From Shigella phage Sf19: a stretch of 64,000 nt of DNA. The position numbers and the translations under genes were made by a program. The notes under the pieces are model-generated. The model made no database searches. It was given only the letters and a program-made list of their open reading frames with translations, and was not told the origin of the DNA. How positions within the stretch are numbered: the stretch's first letter is position 1; every line of letters starts with the position of its first letter. Location of the stretch: the sequence record MF327005; one strand, given 5' to 3'. Below, one piece after another: positions 647 to 17,381 of this stretch.

Positions 647-1044
647 GACTCTTAAATAGACACAGCTTTGTAGTTAAAAGGAAGGTATCTGAAGATGGTC
701 ATTACAATGAAGATGGTGATTGGGTAGCTTCACAGGATATTGTATCAATTAACTGCAAAGGTAATATTCAACCTTATATTAAGGGTTCTGTAAAGAATGG
801 TACACAGATTGTTTTACCTGAAGGTATCAGACTGACAGATACAAGAATCCTTTTCACTGTAGCTGAGTTAAGAACGTCTGATGATGTTGATTGGACTGAA
901 GCTGATATTGTCATGATTAAGGGACACGAATACGAAGTCTTTATGACAATGGATTGGTCTGAACAATTAGCTCACACATCCCATTATGAGTATATCATTA
1001 TTAGAAGGGATAAGATGAATGCAGTTAGAAACAGCAGAACTTGA
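643..1044 (+). CDS. hypothetical virion protein
   Basis: 133-aa ORF, ATGA overlap with upstream gene. Confidence 0.5.
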   Translation: MRLLNRHSFVVKRKVSEDGHYNEDGDWVASQDIVSINCKGNIQPYIKGSVKNGTQIVLPEGIRLTDTRILFTVAELRTSDDVDWTEADIVMIKGHEYEVFMTMDWSEQLAHTSHYEYIIIRRDKMNAVRNSRT

Positions 1045-1618
1045 GAAAGGTATTGTCCGAGTTTTGGTTGATGTTATTGGTCACCGTTTAGCGAGAGACA
1101 AGAATAACAGACCAAATGTTATTAGGGCTTACCCTTCAGATAATTCCAATGATAAAGGTCTGAAACCAGACCAACCTTTTATTACAGTATACTGTCAAGA
1201 TGCTACCACACCTTATGGTTGGGTTCTTGATAAGTTCGTGGAAGATGATGTAGTTTGTTATAGAATTGCTTTTCAGATTCCTGTACTGATTACTGTAAAT
1301 GGTAAAGGTGCTCACAGTATTATGCTTGAGCTAAAACAAAGATTAGAGATGAGTACTACAAGAGATTATCTAGCTGACATGACAGGTGCTTCAGTACTTG
1401 ATACAGGGGCTATCCCGAATGATTATACTTATCTCAACACAGATTTTGAAAATTCTGCACCTCTTGTTGTAACCCTTGTAAAAAATTCAGTATTAAAAGA
1501 TGAACGTGGCAGTATTATTGAACGTGTCATTGTGGATGGTGAATTGGTTTACGAGGAAGGACAGGAGCCACCAGAATATACTATCCATCTAGATGTAGAC
1601 TCCAAAGGGGTAAAATAA
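1019..1618 (+). CDS. hypothetical virion protein
   Basis: 199-aa ORF; start uncertain (26-nt overlap with upstream ORF). Confidence 0.45.
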   Translation: MQLETAELEKGIVRVLVDVIGHRLARDKNNRPNVIRAYPSDNSNDKGLKPDQPFITVYCQDATTPYGWVLDKFVEDDVVCYRIAFQIPVLITVNGKGAHSIMLELKQRLEMSTTRDYLADMTGASVLDTGAIPNDYTYLNTDFENSAPLVVTLVKNSVLKDERGSIIERVIVDGELVYEEGQEPPEYTIHLDVDSKGVK

Positions 1619-2971
1619 ATGTGGAATCCAATTGTTAATGTAGATATTACATTGAACACAGCAGGAACTACAAGAGAAGGTTTTGGTTTACCATTATTCC
1701 TTGCTTCAACAGATAACTTTGAAGAAAGAATCCGTGGTTATACTTCATTAACAGAAGTAGCTGAAGACTTTGATGAAAGTACTGCTGCGTATAAAGCTGC
1801 AAAACAGCTATGGAGCCAAACTCCAAAAGTAACTCAACTGTATATTGGTAGAAGAACTATGCAATATACTGTTTCTATTCCTGACACAGTGGCTGAAGGA
1901 AGTGAATATTCATTGACAGTTGCTATCGGTGGTGGTGTTTCTCAGCCATTCCAATACACTGCAAAAGAAAACGACACAGCACTTATTGTCTTGAATGAGT
2001 TTAAATCACAGATTGAAGCAAGCCCAACAATTAAAGATGGTGTTAATGCTAGTGTAACAGGTACTGGTGCTTCTGCGACGATGATTATTACTAAAGCTGG
2101 TGATAATGACTTCGTAAAAGTAACATCTATTACACCTACAACGTCTATTGCAGCAACAACTGCTGACACGGCTTCCGCTGCTCTGGCATCCATTGAGACA
2201 TATTCAACAGATTGGTACTTCATCTCAGCAGAAGACAGAACTCAACAGTTTGTCTTAGCAATGGCTTCAGAGATTCAGGCTCGTAAGAAGATTTTCTTCA
2301 CAGCTAATGCTGACGTTAAGGCTCTGCAAGGCACTGATTTGACCTCTGCAACAGATGTTCCGGCACAGTTAGCTAAGAGCAAGTACACTCGTACAGTTTG
2401 CTTGTGGCATCACACAGCCGAGTTTGACTACCCAGAAATGGCTTACATTGCATATGGTGCTCCATACGATGCAGGTTCAATTGCTTGGGGTAACGCTCAA
2501 TTAACTGGTGTTGCAGCATCTCTACAACCCGCTAACCAGAGACCACTGACAAGCATTCAGAAGTCAGCTTTAGACACTCGTAGCTGTAACTTCATTGACC
2601 TCGATGGTGGGGTTCCTGTAGTGCGTAGAGGTATCACTTCTGGTGGTGAATGGATTGATATTGTACGTGGTGTTGATTGGCTTGAATCTGATTTGAAAAC
2701 ATCTCTGAGAGACTTGCTAATTAATCAGAAGGGTGGTAAGATTACTTATGATGATACTGGTATTACCCGTATTCGTCAGGTCATTGAAACATCTCTTCAG
2801 CGAGCAGTTAACAGAAACTTTTTGTCAACTTACACCGTTACTGTTCCTAAAGCCTCACAAGTTGCATTGGCAGATAAGAAAGCACGTATCCTGAAAGACG
2901 TTACCTTCCACGGTATTCTTGCAGGGGCTATCTTGGATGTTGACTTGAAAGGCACAGTGGCTTACGAATAA
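1619..2971 (+). CDS. putative tail sheath protein
   Basis: 450-aa ORF immediately upstream of a ~150-aa tube-like ORF, chaperone pair and tape measure (contractile-tail gene order); no motif-level proof. Confidence 0.5.
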   Translation: MWNPIVNVDITLNTAGTTREGFGLPLFLASTDNFEERIRGYTSLTEVAEDFDESTAAYKAAKQLWSQTPKVTQLYIGRRTMQYTVSIPDTVAEGSEYSLTVAIGGGVSQPFQYTAKENDTALIVLNEFKSQIEASPTIKDGVNASVTGTGASATMIITKAGDNDFVKVTSITPTTSIAATTADTASAALASIETYSTDWYFISAEDRTQQFVLAMASEIQARKKIFFTANADVKALQGTDLTSATDVPAQLAKSKYTRTVCLWHHTAEFDYPEMAYIAYGAPYDAGSIAWGNAQLTGVAASLQPANQRPLTSIQKSALDTRSCNFIDLDGGVPVVRRGITSGGEWIDIVRGVDWLESDLKTSLRDLLINQKGGKITYDDTGITRIRQVIETSLQRAVNRNFLSTYTVTVPKASQVALADKKARILKDVTFHGILAGAILDVDLKGTVAYE

Positions 2972-2984
2972 GGAGTAATTAGGA

Positions 2985-3431
2985 ATGGCTATGTATCAGC
3001 AATATTCCCCTAAAGATGTAGTTTGTAGCTGGAATGGCATTGCCATTGAAGGTTTTGCACCAGACTCATTCTTGCGTCTTCAGAGAAACTCTCCACTTGT
3101 TACGCAAGTTGTAGGTGCAGGTGGTCAAGTAGCTCTGACAAGAAATGCAGACAAGACAGGTACGATTGAGATTGAGCTAATGCAGACTTCTCTATCAAAC
3201 CAGATGCTTTCTGCAATTCAAGCTAAACAAGATGACATGGAACTTGAAGAAGATATCTCATCTAACTTTGTAATTTACGACCCATCTGGTTCAGTTCTGG
3301 CAACAGGTATTAATGCTTGGTTGCAAGAGCTTCCACAGATTGAGTTAGGTCGTGACCAGAACTCGAAAACTTGGATTTTCGGTTGTGAGAAGTTAGACTA
3401 CACTTCAACAATCCCTGCGTCAAGCGTTTAA
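2985..3431 (+). CDS. putative tail tube protein
   Basis: 148-aa ORF between putative sheath and chaperones; followed by strong terminator. Confidence 0.5.
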   Translation: MAMYQQYSPKDVVCSWNGIAIEGFAPDSFLRLQRNSPLVTQVVGAGGQVALTRNADKTGTIEIELMQTSLSNQMLSAIQAKQDDMELEEDISSNFVIYDPSGSVLATGINAWLQELPQIELGRDQNSKTWIFGCEKLDYTSTIPASSV

Positions 3432-3444
3432 CAAATCCTAATAA

Positions 3445-3482
3445 GGGGGAGACTGTAAAAGGTCTTCCCCTTTTGTGTTTTT
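3445..3482 (+). terminator. rho-independent terminator after tube gene
   Basis: GGGGGAGAC-loop TGTAAAAG-GTCTTCCCC stem (one G-U) followed by TTTTGTGTTTTT. Confidence 0.65.
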
Positions 3483-3507
3483 ATAGCATAACTTTTAAGG
3501 AATCACA

Positions 3508-3909
3508 ATGAAGACTGAAACTAAAATGATTAACGGCAAGAAGGTAACTATTATTCTTCTTGGAGCAAGAGATGGTATCCGTATCTCTATGAAACTTGGT
3601 AAAGCAGTTGTACCAGCATTTGCACAGATGTTCTCTGGTTTAACCTCTAAAGATGGGGAAGCTAAAATCCCATTTAAAGAACTCGTTGAAGCTTGCTTTG
3701 AAAAGGTTGACGAACTAGATATTGATGCAATGGCAGAGACACTATTTCAGGGGGCAACAGTTAATGACTTCCCACTGAAAATTGATAGTTACTTCCAAGC
3801 GAACTACGGTGAATTTATTGACTTCTTAGCTTTTGCTTTGGAGGCAAACTTCGGAAGTTTTTTCGAGGCAAGCATTTTCAAAAGCCTAACTTCTCAGCAG
3901 GAAGCTTAA
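3508..3909 (+). CDS. putative tail assembly chaperone
   Basis: 133-aa ORF directly upstream of tape measure, typical position. Confidence 0.45.
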   Translation: MKTETKMINGKKVTIILLGARDGIRISMKLGKAVVPAFAQMFSGLTSKDGEAKIPFKELVEACFEKVDELDIDAMAETLFQGATVNDFPLKIDSYFQANYGEFIDFLAFALEANFGSFFEASIFKSLTSQQEA

Positions 3910-4145: not shown

Positions 4146-6381
4146 TGGCACAATATACAGTTGATAGTTTTATTGTTGAACTTGGATTCAGTGAAAAGGT
4201 TGTTAAGGGTTTGCAAAGAGTTGAGAAAATGGCTATGCAGTCTGCTCAACGTATCGAACGCAATATCAATAAAGCCTTTGATGTGAAGCCTAATAGAAGT
4301 TCACAAGACGCTCTAAACAGACTTGTAAAAAACGCTCAGACTGCTTCAGGCAGAATCAATAAATCCCTAAACAATGCTATGAATTTAGATTCACAAGGTG
4401 TAAAATCACTTCGTAGATTAGAAACACAGGGTAAGAAAACAGCCAAAGAAATTAATAAGGCTCTAAGACAAGCTATGAATGTTGAAGGTAAAGTCAATGT
4501 TCGTGGTGGAGTTGGTAGAGGCCGTGGTAACACTATCCCTCCGGTTGGAGGTGGTGGTTCACCTAGAGTTAGACCTGATATTGCTCAAAGACAGATGGAA
4601 AGAATGTTTAATAACAACTTCTACTCTGGTTTGACTCGTCGTCTTGAAACAATTGGTGGACAAGGTAACCAAATGGCTACTTCCTTCAGAGGAAGCTTAC
4701 AAGGAATCTATAATAAGTACAAAGGTAGTGGTAAAGTTGGTGAGTATGAGATGGAAGTCAAGAAACTCATTGACACTACCAAACGTTGGGTTATTGCAGA
4801 AAATGCTAGACTTAAGGCAGTCAGAGAGTCAGCTTGGTTACAAGACAGAGCAAACTCTTCACTAAGACAGCTTGTAGGTGGTTTTGTTTCAGCGTATGCT
4901 ATGCTGGAATTAGCTCAGAAGACTATTGATGCAGGTGTAAAGAGACAGTCTGCACAGTTAGCCTCAACAGCTATCTTTGGAGGGGATACACAGCAAGCTA
5001 GAATGTTCGCTGCTACGTTCTCTCACCAGATTGGTCAGAACTACACAGACACTATGAAGCAGTACTCAAACTTCGCTGCTGGTGCTCAACCAGAGTTAGG
5101 TTTTAAAGGGACTCAAGAGTTCTATAAGAACGCTGCTATGTTCTCACGTATTCGTGGTGCTTCTGATGAAGACTTGAAAGGTATCATGATTGCTTTCCAG
5201 CAAATGGCATCTAAAGGTAAGATTCAGGCTGAAGAACTTCGTGGACAGTTAGGTGACCGTTTAGCAGGTGCTGTTCAGTTATTCTCTGATGCTATTGGTA
5301 AAACTCCACAAGAACTTGACAAGATGATGAAAGATGGTCAGCTTCTTGCAAAAGACGTTCTACCAAAAGTCTCAGAAAAAATGAGAGAGCTTGTTGAAGC
5401 AGCAGGTGGTATGAATGCAGTTTCTAAGCAGACAGCTACCTCTATGGGCCAAGCAAAGGCAATGTGGGATAACACCCTTGTAGCTTTGTTTAACAACTCT
5501 AGCGAAGGTATTTCACAACTCTCTAACTCAGTTGCAATGTTCTTGCAAGGTTCCCTTGGTACATCTGAAGCACTTGGTACAGGTATTGGTTACCTTTTAA
5601 AAGGTGCTAGTAACCTCCTAGACTTCGTGACAGATATCATGTACCGCATTTCTTCATTGTACTACACCTCAATGGGTTATTTCAAGGAATTAGATGCTAG
5701 TCAACAGAAACTAATCAAGGATTCTGCTGAGTTGGTTGCTACGTTCACCGCTATTGGTGTTTCAATTGCAGCTATTACAAAAGTCGCTAAAATCTTCGGT
5801 GGCACTGTAGCATTTGTCAAGAGTATCTTTGAAGAAGGTATCTTAGCTAAGATTGCACAGAAGTTTGGATTAACTACAGCAGCAGAAACAGCAGCTACAA
5901 CGGCTGGTGTATCAGCAACCAGAATGGCTCTTGGTGTAGGTGGTTCTGCATTAATGTTATCTGGTTCAGTTGACAAGAATGCTGGAAAGAGATTTAACGA
6001 GGTTAACACACCTAATCCTTTCAATGAAGCTATCTCAGGAATCACTAATCCAAAACGTCCAATGTTCTTTGACCAGAATGGACAACTTCAGTTTGCACAA
6101 TATACCACAGACACTTCTGGAAATATTCAGAGAGTTGATAATGGTTTGTCAAATTGGGATATTATCATGAACAATCTGTCTGAGTCTCTAAATAACTTTG
6201 CAAACAAGTTTAACCAGACACCTATGATGATGACTCCTTCTGGACTACCATTGCAAACTAAGCAGACGCTTAACGTTTCCTTTAATCTGGATGGTAAGCA
6301 GATTGCTACTAAGATGGTGGATATCACTGATAAGAGTCAGGAAGATATTCTGTTAAACTCTAGCTACCCAGAGGATGAATA

Positions 6382-6382: not shown

Positions 6383-9143
<2,761 letters not shown>

Positions 9144-9144
<1 letters not shown>

Positions 9145-9560
9145 TGAAAACAGATTTTGCAATCAATCTTGGTGGTGACTACGTAGCTAAATTAGGAAAT
9201 GATTCTGTATACGTTGCTCACGGAGATTTAAAAATTACGGGTAATCAGATTAGAATTATCCCAGAAGACGATAAAGCTACTCAGGTAGCTCAAAGATTAC
9301 ATATTAGGTGTCTTCTAAGGGCTGGAGAGGTATTCTTTAATACATCTGCTGGATTCCCTTATTTACAGCTTGCTAAGTTCAAGCAGAAGACCTCTATTTT
9401 TGATAATTATATGAAAGGTTACCTTGTTGAAACGAGAGATGTAACAAACATCTACAACTACTCTTCAACAATGGATAATGCAATGAGAAAAGTGTCAGTA
9501 AGATTTAATGCAACGACAACTGCTGACGATGTTGAAATTAATACAGAGGTAAACATTTAA
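9144..9560 (+). CDS. baseplate protein (possible gp25/W-like wedge)
   Basis: 138-aa ORF immediately before a J-like ORF; size and position only. Confidence 0.4.
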
Positions 9561-11029
9561 TGGCTGGATTAACAACTACAGGTTTACAAACAAAAAGATA
9601 TCAAGAAATCTTGGATGATGTTAAAGCAAGTCTGTATAGAGATATCTCACCAAACCTTGATGTTTCTGAAGATAGCGAACTTGGGTTATTCTTAGCTTCT
9701 GTTTGCCGAGGTCTTGCAGACGTTCATGAAATCTTGTCAGAAATCTATGATGGTGGTACTATTGACAAAGCTGAAGGATTCAGTTTAGATGATGTAACAG
9801 CTTTGAATGCTGTATACAGATATGTGGCACAGGCTACAAGAGGCCAAGCTGAGTTCACTGGTAATTCTGGTGCTCCTGTACCAGCCACTACAAGATTAAG
9901 AAGCACAGCAGGTAATATCTTTTACCCTGTGTCAACTTTCACACTGACTCCATCTTACTGTGTAGAGGCAAACTTAGAAGTTAACTCTTTACGAACAGAT
10001 GCAAACTATGTTATTATCATTGACAACATTGAGTATTCATATCAGCCGACTAGTTCTGATACCATTACAACATTGCTACAGAAACTTGCAGATGCTATTA
10101 ATGGTGGTATTATTGCAAAGGCTGAAGTTACTAATGATGGTTCAGTTCTGAGAATCTATAAAGACACTGGAGATATCATTGCCAGAACTAACCCTATGGT
10201 TGTTACCGCAACGACATTCTTAACATTTACAAAGATTACTTCAATTAGTGACGTTGTAGCAGATGAAACTGGAGCCATCCAGACTCTGGCAGGAACCTTG
10301 ATTGAGATTGAAACAACTGTAGATGGTCTCGATAGTGTTTTCAACAGATATGACTTGACAACAGGTCGTGATGAGGAAACTGACACAGAACTGAGACAGC
10401 GTTACTTAGAATCTCTGGCTGTTACTGGTGTAGGTACTCTAGATGCTATTGTAGCTGCTGTCAAGAGAGTTCAAGGTGTGTCTGATGCTTCTGGTGTAGA
10501 AAATGATACTGAGACAACAAACTCTGATGGTCTTCCTCCGAAGTCTTTTAAGATTGTTGTAGTTGGTGGTCAGAATGATAATATTGCACAGGCAATCTGG
10601 GACACGAAACCTGCTGGTATTCGCCCATATGGTTCAATCTTTGGGACTGCATATGACTTAGGTTCTCTCCCTCACGACGTTTACTTTAGTAGACCAATGC
10701 CTAAATACGTTTTTGTCAAGGTTACTTACTCTCTTTACGATGAAGAGACTCTTAACATCCCTGAACAGGATATTCATGACAGAATTGTTCAAGGTATTAA
10801 TGCCTACGGTAGAACTTTGAAAGTTGGTAACGATGTAATCCCTAACAGAATCTATGGACATATCTATGATGTGATTCAAGGTATCGAGATTAATGAGATT
10901 AAGGTTGCACTTTCAAATAACCAAGCAATTCCACCTGCTGAGGGGCAGTACACAACCTCAAGAATCACTATTGATGGTGACCAGTACACTGTTTGGGAAA
11001 GCTCACAGTATACAATTACCAAGGAGTAA
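9560..11029 (+). CDS. baseplate wedge protein (J-like)
   Basis: 489-aa ORF, size and position typical of J/gp6-like wedge subunit; no motif proof. Confidence 0.45.
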
Positions 11030-11031
11030 CA

Positions 11032-11889
11032 ATGTTTAAAAAGATTGAAAACTTTTATGAGAAAACATTGGACGAAAGAACTGTAACTCAATTCAAAGAT
11101 AAGTTTATTTACACAAGTCTATTGAAATCTATCACAGATGAGTTACAATTATTAGAGGATATCAGTAATCAGTTATATACTGAAAGAAATATTCGTGTAG
11201 GTGTTGGCACACAACTTGATAACATCGGGGCTTTGATTAAAGTCCCTAGACCTATTGGTGCTGATGATGACACTTACAGAGCTATCCTCTACATTCAAAT
11301 TTTCTTAAGACGTTCTGACACCACACCAAGCTTCTTACAAAGAGCTGTTATGACTCTTTACAACGCATCATTCAGCCAGATTTTTGAGCACATTACGCCA
11401 ATGACTGGTGGAATTGTTATCCGTGTAAACACTCGTAATAACGTGTTAGATACAGCATACACACTTTCTAAGATTGCTGCAACAACTATTGGTTCAGCAG
11501 TTATCCTTAGAGATGTTACCTTAAATGGTACTGCTTGGACTCCTGTAGAGGTTGCTGATTCATCTCTGGCAATTACTGATGAGAACAATAACTGGTTTGT
11601 AACAAACACTAACAAGGGTCTTATTACGAACAACACAGGTGGCTCTCTAGAAGCAAATAAATTAGGTAGTTTTGCAGATGCAGGTGTAAGGGATGGTTAT
11701 GTAAGAGTGGATAAAACTGGTGGAAGTACCAGTAAAGATTATTTAAAAGTCAGCAAAACAAACAATAGCAACGACTATTTCATTGCTGGTAAAGAAACAG
11801 TAGCAGGTGGTGATTATGGGATTATGGCAGAAGTCGCCCAAATCGTCAAAGGCAGAAAAGATAAATCTCAACAAGAAGGAAGTTCATAA
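11032..11889 (+). CDS. baseplate/tail fibre attachment protein
   Basis: ATG at 11032 preceded by AAGGAG; track ORF starts at 10993 inside upstream gene. Confidence 0.5.
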
Positions 11890-12188
11890 TGTCTCTTTCA
11901 TGGTCTACAGATACAGTTGATGCTGACGGTAACCAGCTTAAAGTTTTACCACCTCCAGAAATTCAAGCCACTGGCCTATTAAGGGGTGAACCTATGGGTC
12001 GTCAGTGGTTTAACTATATTATCAACTATTTGCTTAACAAAGTAAATGGTACGGTTGGAGAGGTTCGTTCATTTGCTACGGAGCAACCTGATTTAGTTTC
12101 CAATGGTTGGGAATTAATTGACACAGTAACAGGAACTGCACCCACTAGCACGACTAACCTTTACACATACGAATATAAAGGGAGCTAA
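11889..12188 (+). CDS. hypothetical tail protein
   Basis: 99-aa ORF coupled between baseplate and fibre genes. Confidence 0.45.
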
Positions 12189-12190
12189 TA

Positions 12191-13366
12191 ATGCCAGTAG
12201 GTGAAATTCAAATTAGTGCATTGCCTCAAGCCTCGTTGCCTATTGATTTAAGTGATATCTTTCACCTTAAGCAAGGTATTGAGGATAAACGATGCACACT
12301 TGAGCAATTACTTGCTCCACACGCATCTTTAAGAAATAACCCACACGGCGTTACAAAGGTTCACGTAGAACTCGGTAATGTTGTTAACGCACTCCAATTA
12401 GTGGCTGCTAATAACTTGTCAGACGTGGTTAGTGTTGAAGAGGCTAGGCAGAACCTTAATATTCTATCAAGTGATGAAGTTAATGCTCTTATCCAGAATC
12501 ACATTAATGACAAGAATAACCCTCACAACACTAACAAGATTCAAGTAGGTTTGTCTAATATTCAAAACTGGACATATTCAAACTCTTACTCTGAAGACGC
12601 TGATAAGTATGCTACTGCAAAAGCTGTGAATGCTTTATACAGGGCTATCCAGAATAGCTATCCAATTGGTACTATTCATTTGTCAGTTAACCCTGCAAAC
12701 CCATCTACATATTTACTTTGTGGTGGTACTTGGGAGTTAGTTTCTAAAGGAAGGTCTCTTGTCGGTTATGACACAGATACAAGACCTGTAGAATCAGTAT
12801 TTGGTTCTGCTACTGTAACACTTACACAAAATAACATTCCAAGTCACACACACTCTGTATTGTTAACTGGTGGTGGACACTCCCATAATGCAACAGTAGT
12901 AATTTCTAGCTTTGACTATGGGACTAAGAGCACATCAAGTTTTGATTACGGTTCTAAGGCCACAAACGACTCTGGAAGCCACGCTCATAACGTTAATGGT
13001 TCTGTAAGCAGTGCTGGTAGTCACAGCCACAGGATTCCATTGAGGGGTTCTGACAGGGGTGGTGTGAATGCTATTACGGCAACGGCTGATGCAGGGGTTG
13101 GTAATGCGTCATATACAGACTTTGATGGGGTTCACACACATACCTTCAACGTTAATTCTTCAGTTGGTGGTAACCACTCTCACAGTGTGTATATCGGAGC
13201 ACATGGACACAGTGTTGCAATTGGTTCACATGGACACTCAGGTACTGTGACAGTCCAATCTTCTGAGCACACTCACTCAGGTACAACTGGTGCATTTGGT
13301 GCTGGACAAGCATTTAATATTGAGCAACCTTCTTATGTTGTATATGTTTGGAAGAGAACTGCGTAA
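12191..13366 (+). CDS. tail fibre protein with His-rich C-terminal tip
   Basis: C-terminal third contains repeated HxH motifs (HTHS, GHSHN, SHAHN, SHSHR, HTHT, NHSHS, AHGHS, SHGHS, EHTHS); C-terminus ...YVVYVWKRTA resembles next ORF. Confidence 0.7.
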   Translation: MPVGEIQISALPQASLPIDLSDIFHLKQGIEDKRCTLEQLLAPHASLRNNPHGVTKVHVELGNVVNALQLVAANNLSDVVSVEEARQNLNILSSDEVNALIQNHINDKNNPHNTNKIQVGLSNIQNWTYSNSYSEDADKYATAKAVNALYRAIQNSYPIGTIHLSVNPANPSTYLLCGGTWELVSKGRSLVGYDTDTRPVESVFGSATVTLTQNNIPSHTHSVLLTGGGHSHNATVVISSFDYGTKSTSSFDYGSKATNDSGSHAHNVNGSVSSAGSHSHRIPLRGSDRGGVNAITATADAGVGNASYTDFDGVHTHTFNVNSSVGGNHSHSVYIGAHGHSVAIGSHGHSGTVTVQSSEHTHSGTTGAFGAGQAFNIEQPSYVVYVWKRTA

Positions 13367-13376
13367 TTATTTTATA

Positions 13377-13393
13377 AGGGGCTGTGTAGCCCC
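13377..13393 (+). promoter_or_regulatory. GC hairpin GGGGCT-GTGT-AGCCCC between the two fibre genes (possible promoter spacer or processing site)
   Basis: Perfect 6-bp stem with tetraloop, flanked by TTTATA (13371-13376) and TAGAAA (13394-13399) at 17-bp spacing; no T-run. Confidence 0.3.
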
Positions 13394-13411
13394 TAGAAAG
13401 AGGATTTATAA

Positions 13412-15790
13412 ATGGCTGAATATAAGCTAAGTGAGCTAAACAGTATTGATACAGTTCGCTCAGAAGATTTACTTCACCTAAGAATTATCAAAAGGTCTGA
13501 TATGCTAGGTGATGAAGACCGTAAAATGACCTATGCAAATTTCCTTGCCTCTTTCAAACTAGAAAGATTCTTACAACTAACTGGTGGGGATATGACAGGG
13601 AATCTTGGCATCGTTAAATTAAGATACGGTGGAAAAGACTTATTAGACCCAACAGGTTCTTCTGAGGTTATTCTCGGTGACACTGCCAAGACCTTTAGAA
13701 TTAATGCAAGTGCTTTAAGATTAACTGTAAATGATGCCACAAGGTCTGCAACAGTTTATCACACACTTAATAAACCATCTCCTAATGAATTAGGTATGAG
13801 AACTAATACTGAAAATGATGCAAGATACGCTATGAAGGAAACTGAAAATACCTTCTTGGCAAGACAAATCATTAATATCAACGGTGTTGGTTTGACACTT
13901 AAAAGTATCTTACCAGATGGTGGAGCATATATTGAAGCAAGAGACTCAAATAATGCTTTGAGATTCACAGTTGGTAACTTGACTTCTGGGACTGATGTTA
14001 CATTAGTTAACAGCAAAGGTGCTACGTTGACTCTTGGTACAAACTCTGTTAGTGTTGACAAGAACTTTGAAATCAATGGTCAGGTTCAGCCTAATAACTG
14101 GAACAACCTTGATGCAAGATTCTTTACACAGACTGCTGCTGACCAGAGATTTGCAAGACTTAATGCAAGTAATAACTTTGTTGGGGTTAACAACTTCAAC
14201 GGGAAGACTTATGTTATTGCAGATAGTAATGCACTTAACTTAAGAGCGGCTACAGAGAATGCTGCATTATTTATGCGTGGTTACAACAGTGCTGGGACAG
14301 GTGCTTGGTATGTGGGTCAACCAGATGGTACGCAGTCTGAGATTGTTTTAGCAAACCAGATGACAAATGTTAACTTGAAAATTGCTACAGAGTTTTCATT
14401 TAACAAAGCTATTAATGTATCTGGTCAGGTAAAACCAAGTGACTTCGCAAACTTTGATACAAGATATGTTCCAAGCTCTTTAACGAACGTGCTTGCAAGA
14501 ACTAATGCTGCAAACGTTTTTACTAACCCACAAACTATTGTTACTACAGATGCGGCTTTCACATTGCAAAGTGGGACAGCTAATTCATCACTGTATATTG
14601 TTGGCGCTAATGCAGACGGCAACAGACGTTGGTATATTGGTAACGGTGAAGGCAGTAGGCCAAATTCTCTGTTCCTGTACAACTATTCAAGTGGTGGTGT
14701 ACAGTTAGAAATTGCTGACACTTTCATGTTCAACAGAAGCGTATCAGTAACTGGTCAGGTTCAGCCTACAGATTGGACAAACTTCGACTCAAGATACTAC
14801 ACACAGTCTGCTGCAAACTCTAGATATATGTTATCTGGTGTATCTGGAACTGGAACAGAAGTAGGTGATGCAACAGGTATTGCTTGGAATTCAAAAACAG
14901 GTTTGTACAGTGTTACAAATTCAACTGGTGGGTCTACTCACTTAGTTTACCAAATGCACCTTGGAGTTGGTACATCTACACCGACTGCACAGTTTAAATT
15001 TAACTACAAGAATACTGGAATCTATTATAGAACAGCAAGGGATGGATTTGGTTTTGAAGAGGTTTGGGCTAAAATCTACACAGACCAAGACAAACCTACA
15101 CCTTCTGAACTTGGTGCTTACACCAAGGCTGAAGTAGACCAACGTATTGCTTCTGCTGTAACTGATTCTACAGACCTCAAGAAAGTGTATCCAGTTGGTA
15201 TTGTGACGTTCTTTGCTTCTAATGTCAACCCAAATACAGCTTTCCCAGGCACTACTTGGACTTACTTGACAGAGGGTGCAAACAGAACTATTAGAATTGG
15301 TTCTGCAAATGGTTCCGATGTGAAAGGTCTTGGTGGTTCTGATACGGTGGCTCTAAGTGTTGGTCATATTCCTGCGCACACTCATAGCTTCTCTGGAACA
15401 ACAAGTACATTTGATTATGGTACTAAGTACACAGACGCTCAAGGTGCTCACGACCATGACAGAGGTAACATGGAAATCTCTGGTGACTTTGGTTTCTTCA
15501 GAAGTGATGCAAACAGCTTCTATACAGCAAGTGGGGCATTCGCTATCTCAGGTTCACAAGCCTCTAGGGGTTATACTGGTTCACAATTCACTTATGGTAC
15601 ACCTGTCAACTTCTACGCATCAAGAACTTGGACAGGGAGAACAAGTTGGGTAGGTGCTCACGGTCACGGTGTAGGTATTGGTGCTCACAACCACACATTT
15701 AGTGGTAACACTGGTGCAACTGGTTCTGGTGCAGCATTCAGTGTTCTGAACACTTACATTAAATTAATGGCTTGGGTAAGAACTGCATAA
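13412..15790 (+). CDS. long tail fibre protein
   Basis: 792 aa; three internal copies of a GQV(Q/K)P-x-(N/D)(W/F)-x-N(L/F)D-x-R(F/Y) motif; C-terminal His-rich region (HTHSFSG, AHDHD, AHGHGVGIGAHNH) and ...LMAWVRTA end paralogous to upstream fibre. Confidence 0.75.
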   Translation: MAEYKLSELNSIDTVRSEDLLHLRIIKRSDMLGDEDRKMTYANFLASFKLERFLQLTGGDMTGNLGIVKLRYGGKDLLDPTGSSEVILGDTAKTFRINASALRLTVNDATRSATVYHTLNKPSPNELGMRTNTENDARYAMKETENTFLARQIININGVGLTLKSILPDGGAYIEARDSNNALRFTVGNLTSGTDVTLVNSKGATLTLGTNSVSVDKNFEINGQVQPNNWNNLDARFFTQTAADQRFARLNASNNFVGVNNFNGKTYVIADSNALNLRAATENAALFMRGYNSAGTGAWYVGQPDGTQSEIVLANQMTNVNLKIATEFSFNKAINVSGQVKPSDFANFDTRYVPSSLTNVLARTNAANVFTNPQTIVTTDAAFTLQSGTANSSLYIVGANADGNRRWYIGNGEGSRPNSLFLYNYSSGGVQLEIADTFMFNRSVSVTGQVQPTDWTNFDSRYYTQSAANSRYMLSGVSGTGTEVGDATGIAWNSKTGLYSVTNSTGGSTHLVYQMHLGVGTSTPTAQFKFNYKNTGIYYRTARDGFGFEEVWAKIYTDQDKPTPSELGAYTKAEVDQRIASAVTDSTDLKKVYPVGIVTFFASNVNPNTAFPGTTWTYLTEGANRTIRIGSANGSDVKGLGGSDTVALSVGHIPAHTHSFSGTTSTFDYGTKYTDAQGAHDHDRGNMEISGDFGFFRSDANSFYTASGAFAISGSQASRGYTGSQFTYGTPVNFYASRTWTGRTSWVGAHGHGVGIGAHNHTFSGNTGATGSGAAFSVLNTYIKLMAWVRTA

Positions 15791-15798
15791 TTACCTTG

Positions 15799-15827
15799 TT
15801 GACTAACTGTCAAGATGGTGTTAATAT
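15799..15827 (+). promoter_or_regulatory. sigma70-like promoter TTGACT-17-TAATAT
   Basis: Hexamers at 15799-15804 and 15822-15827; 10-bp inverted repeat CAAGATGGTG/CACCATCTTG (15811-15820, 15845-15854) overlaps it. Confidence 0.5.
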
Positions 15828-15876
15828 TTCTTAGTAGGTATTCTCACCATCTTGGCTCAAGAAGTAAGGTGATTAA

Positions 15877-16071
15877 ATGCCAACCATTCTAGCAATCCTC
15901 ATGAAAAACCTTGGGGCATTCTTTTGGAAGCTTCTTTTTTCTCTTCTCAGTGAATACATGATTGAAAAAGTGTTCTTTAAGCTTGCAAGATACCTTGCGA
16001 GCAAAACAGATACACCTATTGATGATGAATTTGTAGATACCTTGGAAAAGGCTTTTAAAGGTGAGAAATAA
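15877..16071 (+). CDS. small membrane protein (holin-like candidate)
   Basis: 64 aa with one hydrophobic segment (ILAILMKNLGAFFWKLLFSLL); own promoter; function inferred only. Confidence 0.4.
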   Translation: MPTILAILMKNLGAFFWKLLFSLLSEYMIEKVFFKLARYLASKTDTPIDDEFVDTLEKAFKGEK

Positions 16072-16445
16072 TGAAGTGGCTTGAAGATGCTTTTAAGAAT
16101 AATATTGGTGCAATCGTTGTAGGTATTTTCAGTGTAATTGGTATGTACACTACAATGCAGGTCTCTGATGGTAAACAGGAAGTGTCTATCACAAATAAGT
16201 TACAGCAGTTGGATGGTTACTCAAAAGGTAACTATTCAGCTATTCGTGACTTACAATCTGATATGAAGCTCCTACAATTAGGGATGGAGAACCAGAAAGT
16301 TCAGCTAGAGAATGTTAAGGGAGAAAACGCTAAGTTGACTAAGACCCTTGATAAGTTCTCTGACAGTGTTAACAACTTAGCACAATCTGTATCAGCTTTG
16401 CAAGCAATTACAGAACAAAATACCCAAAGCACTAAAAAGAAATAA
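16071..16445 (+). CDS. membrane-anchored coiled-coil protein
   Basis: 124 aa, N-terminal TM segment (IGAIVVGIFSVIGMY) then predicted coiled coil; TAATG coupling. Confidence 0.45.
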   Translation: MKWLEDAFKNNIGAIVVGIFSVIGMYTTMQVSDGKQEVSITNKLQQLDGYSKGNYSAIRDLQSDMKLLQLGMENQKVQLENVKGENAKLTKTLDKFSDSVNNLAQSVSALQAITEQNTQSTKKK

Positions 16446-16449
16446 TTCT

Positions 16450-16477
16450 AAGGCTCCTTTTTACGGGAGCCTTTTTT
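16450..16477 (+). terminator. rho-independent terminator at convergent junction
   Basis: AAGGCTCC-loop-GGAGCCTT followed by TTTTT; lies between plus block end and thyA stop. Confidence 0.6.
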
Positions 16478-16481
16478 GTTT

Positions 16482-17381
16482 CTACTTACCTACTGATAAA
16501 GGTGCTTCAATCTTACCAGCATGTTTATACCCTTTCAACCCACCTAGGAAGTCATCTGCTGTCATATGTCTCAAGTCTTCAAGAGACTTCAAATCTTGAT
16601 GAATTTCAAACTTAGGTGCTGGGAACTCTTCATTACCAAGAAGCTGAAAAACCTGTGACATATGGTTCTGGTAGATTTGAGTATCACCATAAGTCCCTAC
16701 CAGATATCGCGGTGTATATCCCGTCAGTTTACACAACACTTCCAAGATAAAGGCATAGGAAGCAATGTTAAATGGTAACCCTAAGAAGGTATCACAAGAG
16801 CGCTGATACCATTTCAAATCCACCTCATTAGTGTTCGAGATATAAATCTGAAAAAGTACATGACAAGGTGCTAATGCCATAGAGTTACTTGAGATATCTG
16901 CTGCATTCCATGCGTTAACGAGCATGTAACGGTCTGTAGGAGACTTTCTCATCTTCTCTACAAGATTACTCAACTGGTCTACAACAACGCCACCATGACC
17001 TTCGTAGGCTCTCCATTGGACTCCATAGATTCTTCCTCCAGCGTCCTCCAGCCAATCATTCTCTGTAGCATAGGTTGTTTTCAACCAACGTTTAAAATCA
17101 TCTGTCCAGATAGTCCAACGCTCTCCGTCGTTCTCTCCCCAAGTTCTGTAACGCAAATGGCCTAGTTGGTTTTCACCGTTCATAAACCATAATGCTTCAC
17201 CGAGGACTTGACGCATAAATGTTTGTTTTGAGGTGATTAAAGGAAATCCACTACGCATATCAAAACGGAACTCAGGTGGAGCAAAGGTAGAAATCACTGA
17301 GCCAGTTCGGGTTTTACGCAACTCACCAACTGATAAAACATGGTTTAAAATAGCTTTGTAGCTTACATCTGCTTGTGACAT
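16482..17381 (-). CDS. thyA: thymidylate synthase
   Basis: ThyA signature blocks: RTGxxxxSxF, WN...ALAPCH (active-site Cys), YQRSCDxFLGLPFNIASYA. Confidence 0.85.
   Translation of the reverse strand: MSQADVSYKAILNHVLSVGELRKTRTGSVISTFAPPEFRFDMRSGFPLITSKQTFMRQVLGEALWFMNGENQLGHLRYRTWGENDGERWTIWTDDFKRWLKTTYATENDWLEDAGGRIYGVQWRAYEGHGGVVVDQLSNLVEKMRKSPTDRYMLVNAWNAADISSNSMALAPCHVLFQIYISNTNEVDLKWYQRSCDTFLGLPFNIASYAFILEVLCKLTGYTPRYLVGTYGDTQIYQNHMSQVFQLLGNEEFPAPKFEIHQDLKSLEDLRHMTADDFLGGLKGYKHAGKIEAPLSVGK

Follow-up and report, generated by a model that had tools for sequence, protein, structure and literature searches.

The two side-fibre genes of Shigella phage Sf19 probably encode T4 gp37-type tips, with HxH needles and unrelated putative receptor-binding heads

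Does a phage with two adjacent tail-fibre genes, both ending in a histidine-rich region, carry two receptor specificities, and which part of each fibre would contact the host? This question is raised by a 64,000-nucleotide stretch of DNA from Shigella phage Sf19 (sequence record MF327005; the whole stretch is referred to below as the window), which DNA and protein comparisons assign to Mooglevirus (Ounavirinae, FelixO1-like myoviruses). Two consecutive open reading frames (ORFs) on the plus strand, here called A and B, lie exactly at the coordinates given in an earlier note, which had been made from the letters of the DNA alone. The DNA that contains them (12191-15790) exhibits 98.8% identity to Escherichia phage vB_EcoM_3HA14 and 95-98% identity to Shigella phages Sf13-Sf18, all of them Moogleviruses. 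The analysis described below suggests that ORFs A and B are very probably the shorter and the longer side fibre of an Sf14-like Mooglevirus, both equipped with a T4 gp37-type tip, in which the metals would be structural and the hypervariable heads would recognise the host.

The earlier note had drawn attention to an abundance of HxH pairs (two histidines separated by any single residue) at the ends of both proteins, and this abundance is far above that expected by chance. ORF A contains 25 histidines and nine HxH pairs (at amino acids (aa) 219, 230, 264, 278, 315, 329, 338, 347 and 360), compared with a mean of 1.5 pairs in shuffled sequences, and none of 20000 shuffles reached nine; in the region aa 201-391 all 18 histidines sit in such pairs. 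ORF B contains four pairs (aa 656, 680, 750 and 759; shuffled mean 0.19), a number reached by one of 20000 shuffles, and among the other ORFs of at least 100 aa in the window none has more than one HxH. The context of the pairs is mostly G-x-H-x-H-(S/T/N). The similar terminal motifs to which the note had also pointed, ...YVVYVWKRTA in ORF A and ...LMAWVRTA in ORF B, are present and nearly invariant in both families (W387 and R389 in the family of ORF A are invariant or nearly so). The proposed paralogy of the two ends was confirmed by BLASTP (A153-391 versus B589-792, 29% identity, E 2e-17) and by the comparison of C-terminal profiles built from 44 homologues of ORF A and 50 homologues of ORF B (hhalign probability 100%, E 2.7e-56). 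The central parts of the two proteins differ, as claimed: the PF20744 shaft repeats and the PF12604 domain common with the tail fibre S of phage Mu, both present in ORF B, are absent from ORF A according to the Pfam search. As to the N-termini, no similarity between the two proteins was found by BLASTP; a small profile-profile comparison pointed at most to a faint motif that may be common to both, (E)D(K/R)(R/K)(C/M)T (hhalign E 0.004, probability 8%). In ORF A this stretch reads EDKRCT (aa 31-36) and has been discussed as baseplate-binding (PMC11821841), and structural conservation of the baseplate-binding domain of both fibres has been claimed in the literature (PMC12609058). The AlphaFold2 (AF2) monomer model of ORF A shows strands at aa 23-36, followed by helices.

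The sequence comparison with proteins of known structure revealed a highly significant relationship between ORF A (aa 146-363) and the receptor-binding tip of T4 gp37 (2XGF in the PDB, residues 18-228; E 4.2e-25), while ORF B matches 2XGF directly with E 4e-5. All seven HxH pairs of T4 gp37 (883, 915, 929, 966, 980, 989 and 998) are paired with HxH in ORF A, and their spacing is reproduced in the ascending run (34 residues in ORF A versus 32 in T4, then 14 in both) as well as in the descending run (14, 9 and 9 in both), the segment between the two runs being 34 residues long in ORF A and in T4 (929 to 966). ORF A differs from T4 gp37 in having two extra collar-proximal pairs, at 219 and 360. 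In ORF B, the profile alignment identifies the four pairs as the counterparts of A219, A264, A338 and A347; compared with T4 gp37, only these four collar-proximal levels are left and the three distal ones are lost, with GDFGFF and GRTS found in their place. The needle of ORF A also matches lambda Stf at 35-38% identity. In the T4 tip, the trimeric needle is intertwined, with seven iron ions along its axis that are coordinated by the HxH pairs, and the chain doubles back at a small head that makes the receptor contact (Bartual 2010, as cited in PMC12609058 and PMC11705849). The kinship to metal-coordinating HxH tips, which the earlier note had put forward, is therefore well supported for ORF A by the 2XGF match and the register of the seven pairs, and for ORF B by the homology of its tip to that of ORF A. 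The tips appear not to be equivalent, which is one of two refinements of that note suggested by the sequences: ORF A would have nine putative metal sites, and ORF B four together with a different and larger head.

Two simpler readings of the histidine pairs were considered and rejected. Chance or low-complexity histidine richness disagrees with the shuffles, with the conservation and with the homology to 2XGF; an unusual or new kind of metal-binding repeat was dismissed because the HxH spacing is identical to that of T4 gp37. It might also be argued that the pairs hold no metal and represent a conserved packing or hydrogen-bond motif of the β-needle, or that metal is bound at some levels only, and the distal levels of ORF B, evidently dispensable since they are replaced by other residues, speak for such a view. 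However, both histidines of the pairs are strictly conserved at T4-identical spacing, and in the homologous T4 tip exactly these pairs hold the seven Fe ions (Bartual 2010, as cited in PMC12609058 and PMC11705849). HxH is retained in 30-43 of the 44 members of the ORF A family overall (31-41 for the ascending pairs and 30-43 for the descending ones), and in 43-49 of the 50 members of the ORF B family for three of the four pairs (43/50 for the pair at 750 and 49/50 for that at 759). In view of such strict pairwise conservation at the T4 spacing, we regard this alternative as highly improbable.

The profile of the collar domain Gp10_C (PF21939) provides an independent view of the topology of both tips: its positions 4-139 span A155-390 (E 5e-17) and its positions 3-138 span B590-790. 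A profile of 139 positions is thus spread over 236 residues in ORF A and 201 residues in ORF B, which indicates that the needle and the head together form an insertion inside the collar domain, and that the terminal ...RTA aligns with the end of the collar profile and not with the distal end of the fibre. T4 gp10 possesses the same collar fold as ORFs A and B, but without the needle, and it exhibits a single histidine at the position of the LPxHxH exit motif (A219, B656). The T4 gp12-like phage tail collar (PF07484) gave no match at E <= 0.01 for either ORF, PF21939 being found instead; PF07484 is carried by more distant homologues. The gp12 short fibre reportedly has a Zn site. Another difference from T4 concerns the overall architecture: gp37 (1026 aa) forms the last part of a fibre built from four proteins; in the present phage, each fibre is formed by one protein, of 391 or 792 aa, which binds to the baseplate directly.

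Which part of the tip would then meet the host? In both families, the only poorly conserved stretch of the tip is the one between the ascending and the descending HxH runs (A281-310, identity 0.12-0.22 among the 44 homologues; B675-744, identity 0.05-0.18 among the 50). The homology to gp37 implies a chain that doubles back, and this hypervariable segment (A 281-314, B 683-749) is accordingly predicted to form the head that contacts the receptor; this is the second refinement of the earlier note, as it places the receptor-contacting segment between the HxH runs and not at the C-terminus. Of the close relatives, Sf14 has a gp52 that is 100% identical to ORF A, and the counterpart in ESh19 is nearly identical. 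ORF B shares 757 of 792 residues with Sf14 gp53 (95.6%), with the 35 differences clustered in the head and in aa 481-560, and in close Mooglevirus relatives generally its differences cluster at aa 681-740 and in parts of the shaft. Citrobacter phage Michonne exhibits other heads on both fibres, and six HxH in the long one. When used alone as tblastn queries, the heads of ORFs A and B find 59 phage records each, largely the same phages in both searches among the matches listed; the carriers are Moogleviruses of E. coli and Shigella together with Felixounaviruses of E. coli O157 (wV8, EC6, HY02). The head type of ORF A is confined to Ounavirinae that infect E. coli or Shigella, and the head types of FelixO1 and Michonne differ from those of the window. 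Thus, the head type tracks the host and not the phage lineage, as expected of a specificity determinant. Because the tips decide which bacteria can be attacked, knowledge of the ~35-70 residues of the head should help to engineer or to predict the host range of therapeutic phages against Shigella and E. coli.

The two heads of the window are unrelated to each other (34 versus 67 aa, with 2 versus 13 aromatic residues), which makes two different ligands likelier than one, and no DNA repeat that would link the two tips was found in the window. A different situation is encountered in FelixO1a (Salmonella phage FO1a), where the two fibre genes share a direct repeat of 207 nt with 87% identity (4813-5019 and 7263-7469 of the compared stretch); its coding content comprises the distal HxH pairs and a head that is almost the same in both fibres, HTHTVGGRYGGDSIGGKHRVQVSG(T/A)EQVSSVAGDHSHT. 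Such a near-identical distal needle and head suggest gene conversion between the paralogues and a single shared ligand, so that both fibres of that phage probably see the same one. Might the two fibres of the Sf19 window likewise be redundant, binding the same receptor with added avidity and without dual specificity? The co-occurrence of the two head types in largely the same phages, among the matches listed, would agree with this. The lack of resemblance between the two heads in sequence and in length, and the lack of a DNA repeat between the tips, argue otherwise; redundancy is therefore plausible in FelixO1 and less plausible here, and for the present phage we consider it unlikely.

The head of ORF B has also been found outside the Ounavirinae. 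Besides the long fibre of wV8, it occupies the distal end of gp37 of Escherichia phage vB_EcoM-ZQ3, a T-even Mosigvirus (729-3869 of the compared stretch), whose head is ~66-68% identical to that of ORF B and whose remaining part is T4 gp37-like (67% identity). The ZQ3 head is flanked by the T4-type collar and HxH strands, and stands in place of the two head-proximal HxH pairs of T4. The sequences look as if a head cassette had been exchanged horizontally between the Ounavirinae and the Tevenvirinae. It is tempting to generalise that the heads are exchangeable cassettes on a common HxH needle scaffold, and that a two-fibre phage may switch between one-receptor and two-receptor states by short-patch recombination; we offer this proposal tentatively, as an idea for which the case falls a little short of even. 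If it is true, host range might be predictable from the head type alone.

The two-fibre architecture of collar, HxH needle and head is already published, in 2025, for close relatives of this phage, and the main value of the present analysis is its confirmation for this sequence, together with the placement of the head. Mass spectrometry of Sf14 virions revealed both gp52 and gp53 (Subramanian et al. 2025; PMC11821841), and AlphaFold trimers of these proteins were docked in the cryo-EM (electron cryo-microscopy) density as fibres of 430 Å and 630 Å, respectively; the authors consider that the two fibres may bind different receptors (PMC11821841). In the Felixounavirus Bas63 (November 2025), the short tail fibre (STF, gp26) and the long tail fibre (LTF, gp27) both possess a T4 gp37-like collar, an HxH needle and a head at which the chain doubles back; their N-terminal domain, which binds the baseplate, is conserved and their receptor tips vary, and the domain organisation is identical to that of Sf14 gp52 and gp53 (PMC12609058). 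Both systems agree with the presence of one short and one long fibre proposed for this locus. The Sf14 paper mentions HxH for the tail needle only and calls gp52 "C24-like plus gp10-C-like"; a 2XGF-type HxH needle is not reported there (PMC11821841). [quoted passage not shown] The long-fibre head also differs from that of Bas63, being here a 67-aa module devoid of histidines; in this comparison Bas63 is represented by its published description and FelixO1a, of the same genus, by its sequence (its fibres are 67% (A) and 54% (B) identical to those of the window). What the present analysis suggests as new is incremental: the counts of nine and four HxH, an aromatic cassette, present in a T-even gp37 too, that takes the place of the long fibre's distal metal sites, and the apparent copying of the head in FelixO1.

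The Bas63 structure brings in another alternative. In the retracted state, the STF head of that phage is docked between the sheath domains D2 and D3 at ring 10 (PMC12609058), and one may imagine that the long fibre is the sole receptor binder, with the short fibre mainly structural or regulatory and its tip docking on the sheath to hold or to sense the retracted state. The invariance, or near-invariance, of ORF A across Sf14, ESh19 and the window, contrasted with the variation of ORF B, is in line with such a role. Yet the head is the most variable part of the ORF A family and tracks the host genus, and ORF A is homologous to the tip of T4 gp37, which does bind a receptor. Moreover, the long fibres of T4 dock on the virion when retracted and nevertheless bind receptors. 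Taken together, these observations make a purely structural short fibre quite improbable.

If ORFs A and B are receptor-binding side fibres with gp37-type tips, the following mechanism may be envisaged. By analogy with Sf14 and Bas63, each fibre would be a homotrimer, with six of each on the periphery of the baseplate. The chain would leave the gp10/gp37-like collar, run outward as a needle strand, turn in the small distal head and return to the collar, so that three chains with two strands each would build a six-stranded needle. At every HxH level, six imidazoles arranged round the three-fold axis would hold one metal ion (Fe2+ in T4 gp37), giving nine predicted sites in ORF A, four in ORF B and, per virion, at most 78 ions, as extrapolated from T4. 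The role of the metals would be structural: like rivets, they would fix the register and make the needle stiff, and host recognition would be left to the heads. The targets would most likely be two different surface structures, probably parts of the core of lipopolysaccharide (LPS); a need for the LPS core has been either reported or inferred, both for Ounavirinae and for Mooglevirus Henu12, at the level of the phage rather than of the individual fibre. An order of binding can be proposed by analogy with T4 and Bas63 only: the long fibre may sense the host first and reversibly, and the short fibre may bind second.

Several observations weigh against the proposed assignment. The AF2 monomer models are of modest quality (mean predicted local distance difference test score, pLDDT, of 67.7 for full ORF A and 65.2 for the ORF B tip, with values <50 in the heads), and the Foldseek search of the PDB with these models did not return 2XGF: only the collar was matched (T4 gp10 C-terminal domain, probability 0.99-1.0), and the remaining matches were long β-hairpins of pore-forming toxins. 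As a monomer cannot represent an intertwined trimer, these models were used neither for nor against the needle. The loss of the three distal HxH levels makes any prediction of the distal fold of ORF B less secure. Based on the AlphaFold trimers, the authors of the Sf14 study placed the "C24-like" domain of gp52 in the middle of the fibre and not at its tip (PMC11821841); on T4 homology, this domain, central in sequence, should be distal in space. Since the STF head of Bas63 touches the sheath of its own virion, some of the constraint acting on the head may come from within the virion. Finally, profile searches identified no gp38-, gp57A-, Tfa- or Mu U-like chaperone gene downstream of the fibres, unlike in T4, lambda and Mu: the fibres of Mu (U/U') and lambda (Tfa) need a chaperone encoded downstream, and T4 has gp38, the assembly catalyst of the distal long tail fibre. 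The authors of the Sf14 study likewise reported no homologues of the Mu chaperones (PMC11821841).

The positions of all features are collected in Table 1. In the part of ORF B that precedes the tip, the shaft comprises a family of DNA repeats with three copies, at 14072, 14417 and 14747, and the domain that follows it (aa 477-582) confidently matches the Mu fibre S/S' structure (8JU3 in the PDB, E 2.6e-22), with no alignment found beyond residue 429 of 8JU3. Besides the head, relatives diverge strongly in ORF B aa 381-560 (14553-15091) as well: the identity drops to 0.15-0.40 in the third shaft repeat of ESh19 (aa 381-440) and to 0.10-0.25 in the Mu-S-like domain of Michonne (aa 461-560). Unexpected variability of the shaft has been reported for the long fibres of Felixounavirus (PMC12609058), and the mosaic pattern of ORF B agrees with it.

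Table 1. Features of the fibre locus and its surroundings in the window
Feature	Position	Strand	Evidence or remark
Baseplate spike/needle	8503-9144	+	Upstream of fibres
gpJ-like wedge	9560-11029		Upstream of fibres
Second wedge protein	End at 11889		Upstream of fibres
99-aa protein just upstream of fibres	11889-12188	+	phrog_4141; no Pfam match; 87% identity to FelixO1a gp74
ORF A, short(er) tail fibre, 391 aa	12191-13366	+	phrog_2097, E 5e-131; homologue of Bas63 STF gp26
ORF A aa 1-145, N-terminal region for baseplate binding, with a short helical shaft	12191-12625	+	Well conserved among homologues
ORF A aa 146-218, first collar part (T4 gp10 C-terminal/gp37 collar type)	12626-12844	+	Gp10_C start; T4 gp10 E 5e-7; 2XGF residue 18 onward
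ORF A aa 219-280, ascending needle strand, 4 HxH (219, 230, 264, 278) and two FDYGxK repeats	12845-13030	+	
ORF A aa 281-314, predicted head at the distal end with the turn of the chain, putatively in contact with the receptor	13031-13132	+	
ORF A aa 315-362, descending needle strand, 5 HxH (315, 329, 338, 347, 360)	13133-13276	+	
ORF A aa 363-391, return to collar, terminal ...YVVYVWKRTA	13277-13366	+	Gp10_C position 139/139 at aa 390
Hairpin GGGGCT-GTGT-AGCCCC, perfect 6-bp GC stem	13379-13394	+	In the 45-nt gap between the fibre genes; read from sequence
ORF B, long(er) tail fibre, 792 aa	13412-15790	+	phrog_4277, full length, 1338 bits; homologue of Bas63 LTF gp27
ORF B aa 1-477, N-terminal region of attachment, then shaft with three ~110-115-aa repeats	13412-14842	+	Pfam gp37_trimer PF20744, 3 stretches, E 2.8e-44
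ORF B aa 478-587, domain common with phage Mu tail fibre S	14843-15172	+	PF12604 gp37_C, E 6.5e-18, 65 bits (cutoff 22.5)
ORF B aa 588-655, first collar part	15173-15376	+	Gp10_C 25.9 bits, slightly below the 27-bit cutoff
ORF B aa 656-682, short ascending needle, 2 HxH (656, 680)	15377-15457	+	
ORF B aa 683-749, head of 67 aa without His and rich in aromatic residues (13 F/W/Y), putative receptor-binding cassette	15458-15658	+	
ORF B aa 750-761, descending needle, 2 HxH (750, 759)	15659-15694	+	
ORF B aa 762-792, return to collar, terminal ...KLMAWVRTA	15695-15790	+	W and R invariant or nearly so in family
Two small ORFs, 64 aa and 124 aa	Within 15791-16445		After fibres; no Pfam match
Bidirectional terminator	16450-16473		Downstream of the two small ORFs
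Thymidylate synthase and dihydrofolate reductase genes	Beyond terminator	Opposite	

The analysis of the genomic neighborhood revealed a gene order (gpJ-like wedge, wedge, small platform protein, short fibre, long fibre, two small ORFs and the td-frd genes) that is the same in Sf14, Silverhawkium, Michonne, FO1a and wV8. The gpJ-like wedge carries the short fibre of Bas63, and a small platform trimer carries its long fibre (PMC12609058). The 99-aa protein encoded just upstream of ORF A is probably the counterpart of that LTF platform, Bas63 gp25, through which the long fibre is attached, and of Sf14 gp51, because the succession of wedge-2, wedge-1, platform, STF and LTF is shared with Bas63 and Sf14 and because the protein resembles FelixO1a gp74. 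Farther upstream, the baseplate spike ends with ...NEHTHHYYW..., which contains an HxH and matches H194/H196, for which a role as iron site has been proposed in the gp47 needle of Sf14 (PMC11821841), as well as the spikes of the P2 gpV type.

A scan of 11800-16600 for promoters and terminators revealed no enrichment over shuffles, and its sole convincing element is the terminator at 16450-16473. That scan did not pick out the hairpin between the fibre genes, which has no U-tract and is followed by an AAGAGGA ribosome-binding site. The role of the hairpin may be to adjust the relative level of long-fibre expression or to make the mRNA more stable. In phage wV8, the equivalent position between the fibre genes is annotated as a Rho-independent terminator. 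The second of the small ORFs downstream of the fibres (16071-16445, plus strand) encodes the 124-aa protein, which has an N-terminal hydrophobic helix and a long coiled-coil-like tail, and is annotated as "putative holin" in relatives. Its counterpart in Sf14, gp55, is listed among the virion proteins identified by mass spectrometry (PMC11821841), and a structural or fibre-related role may be considered for the 124-aa protein, given the place of its gene right after the fibre genes.

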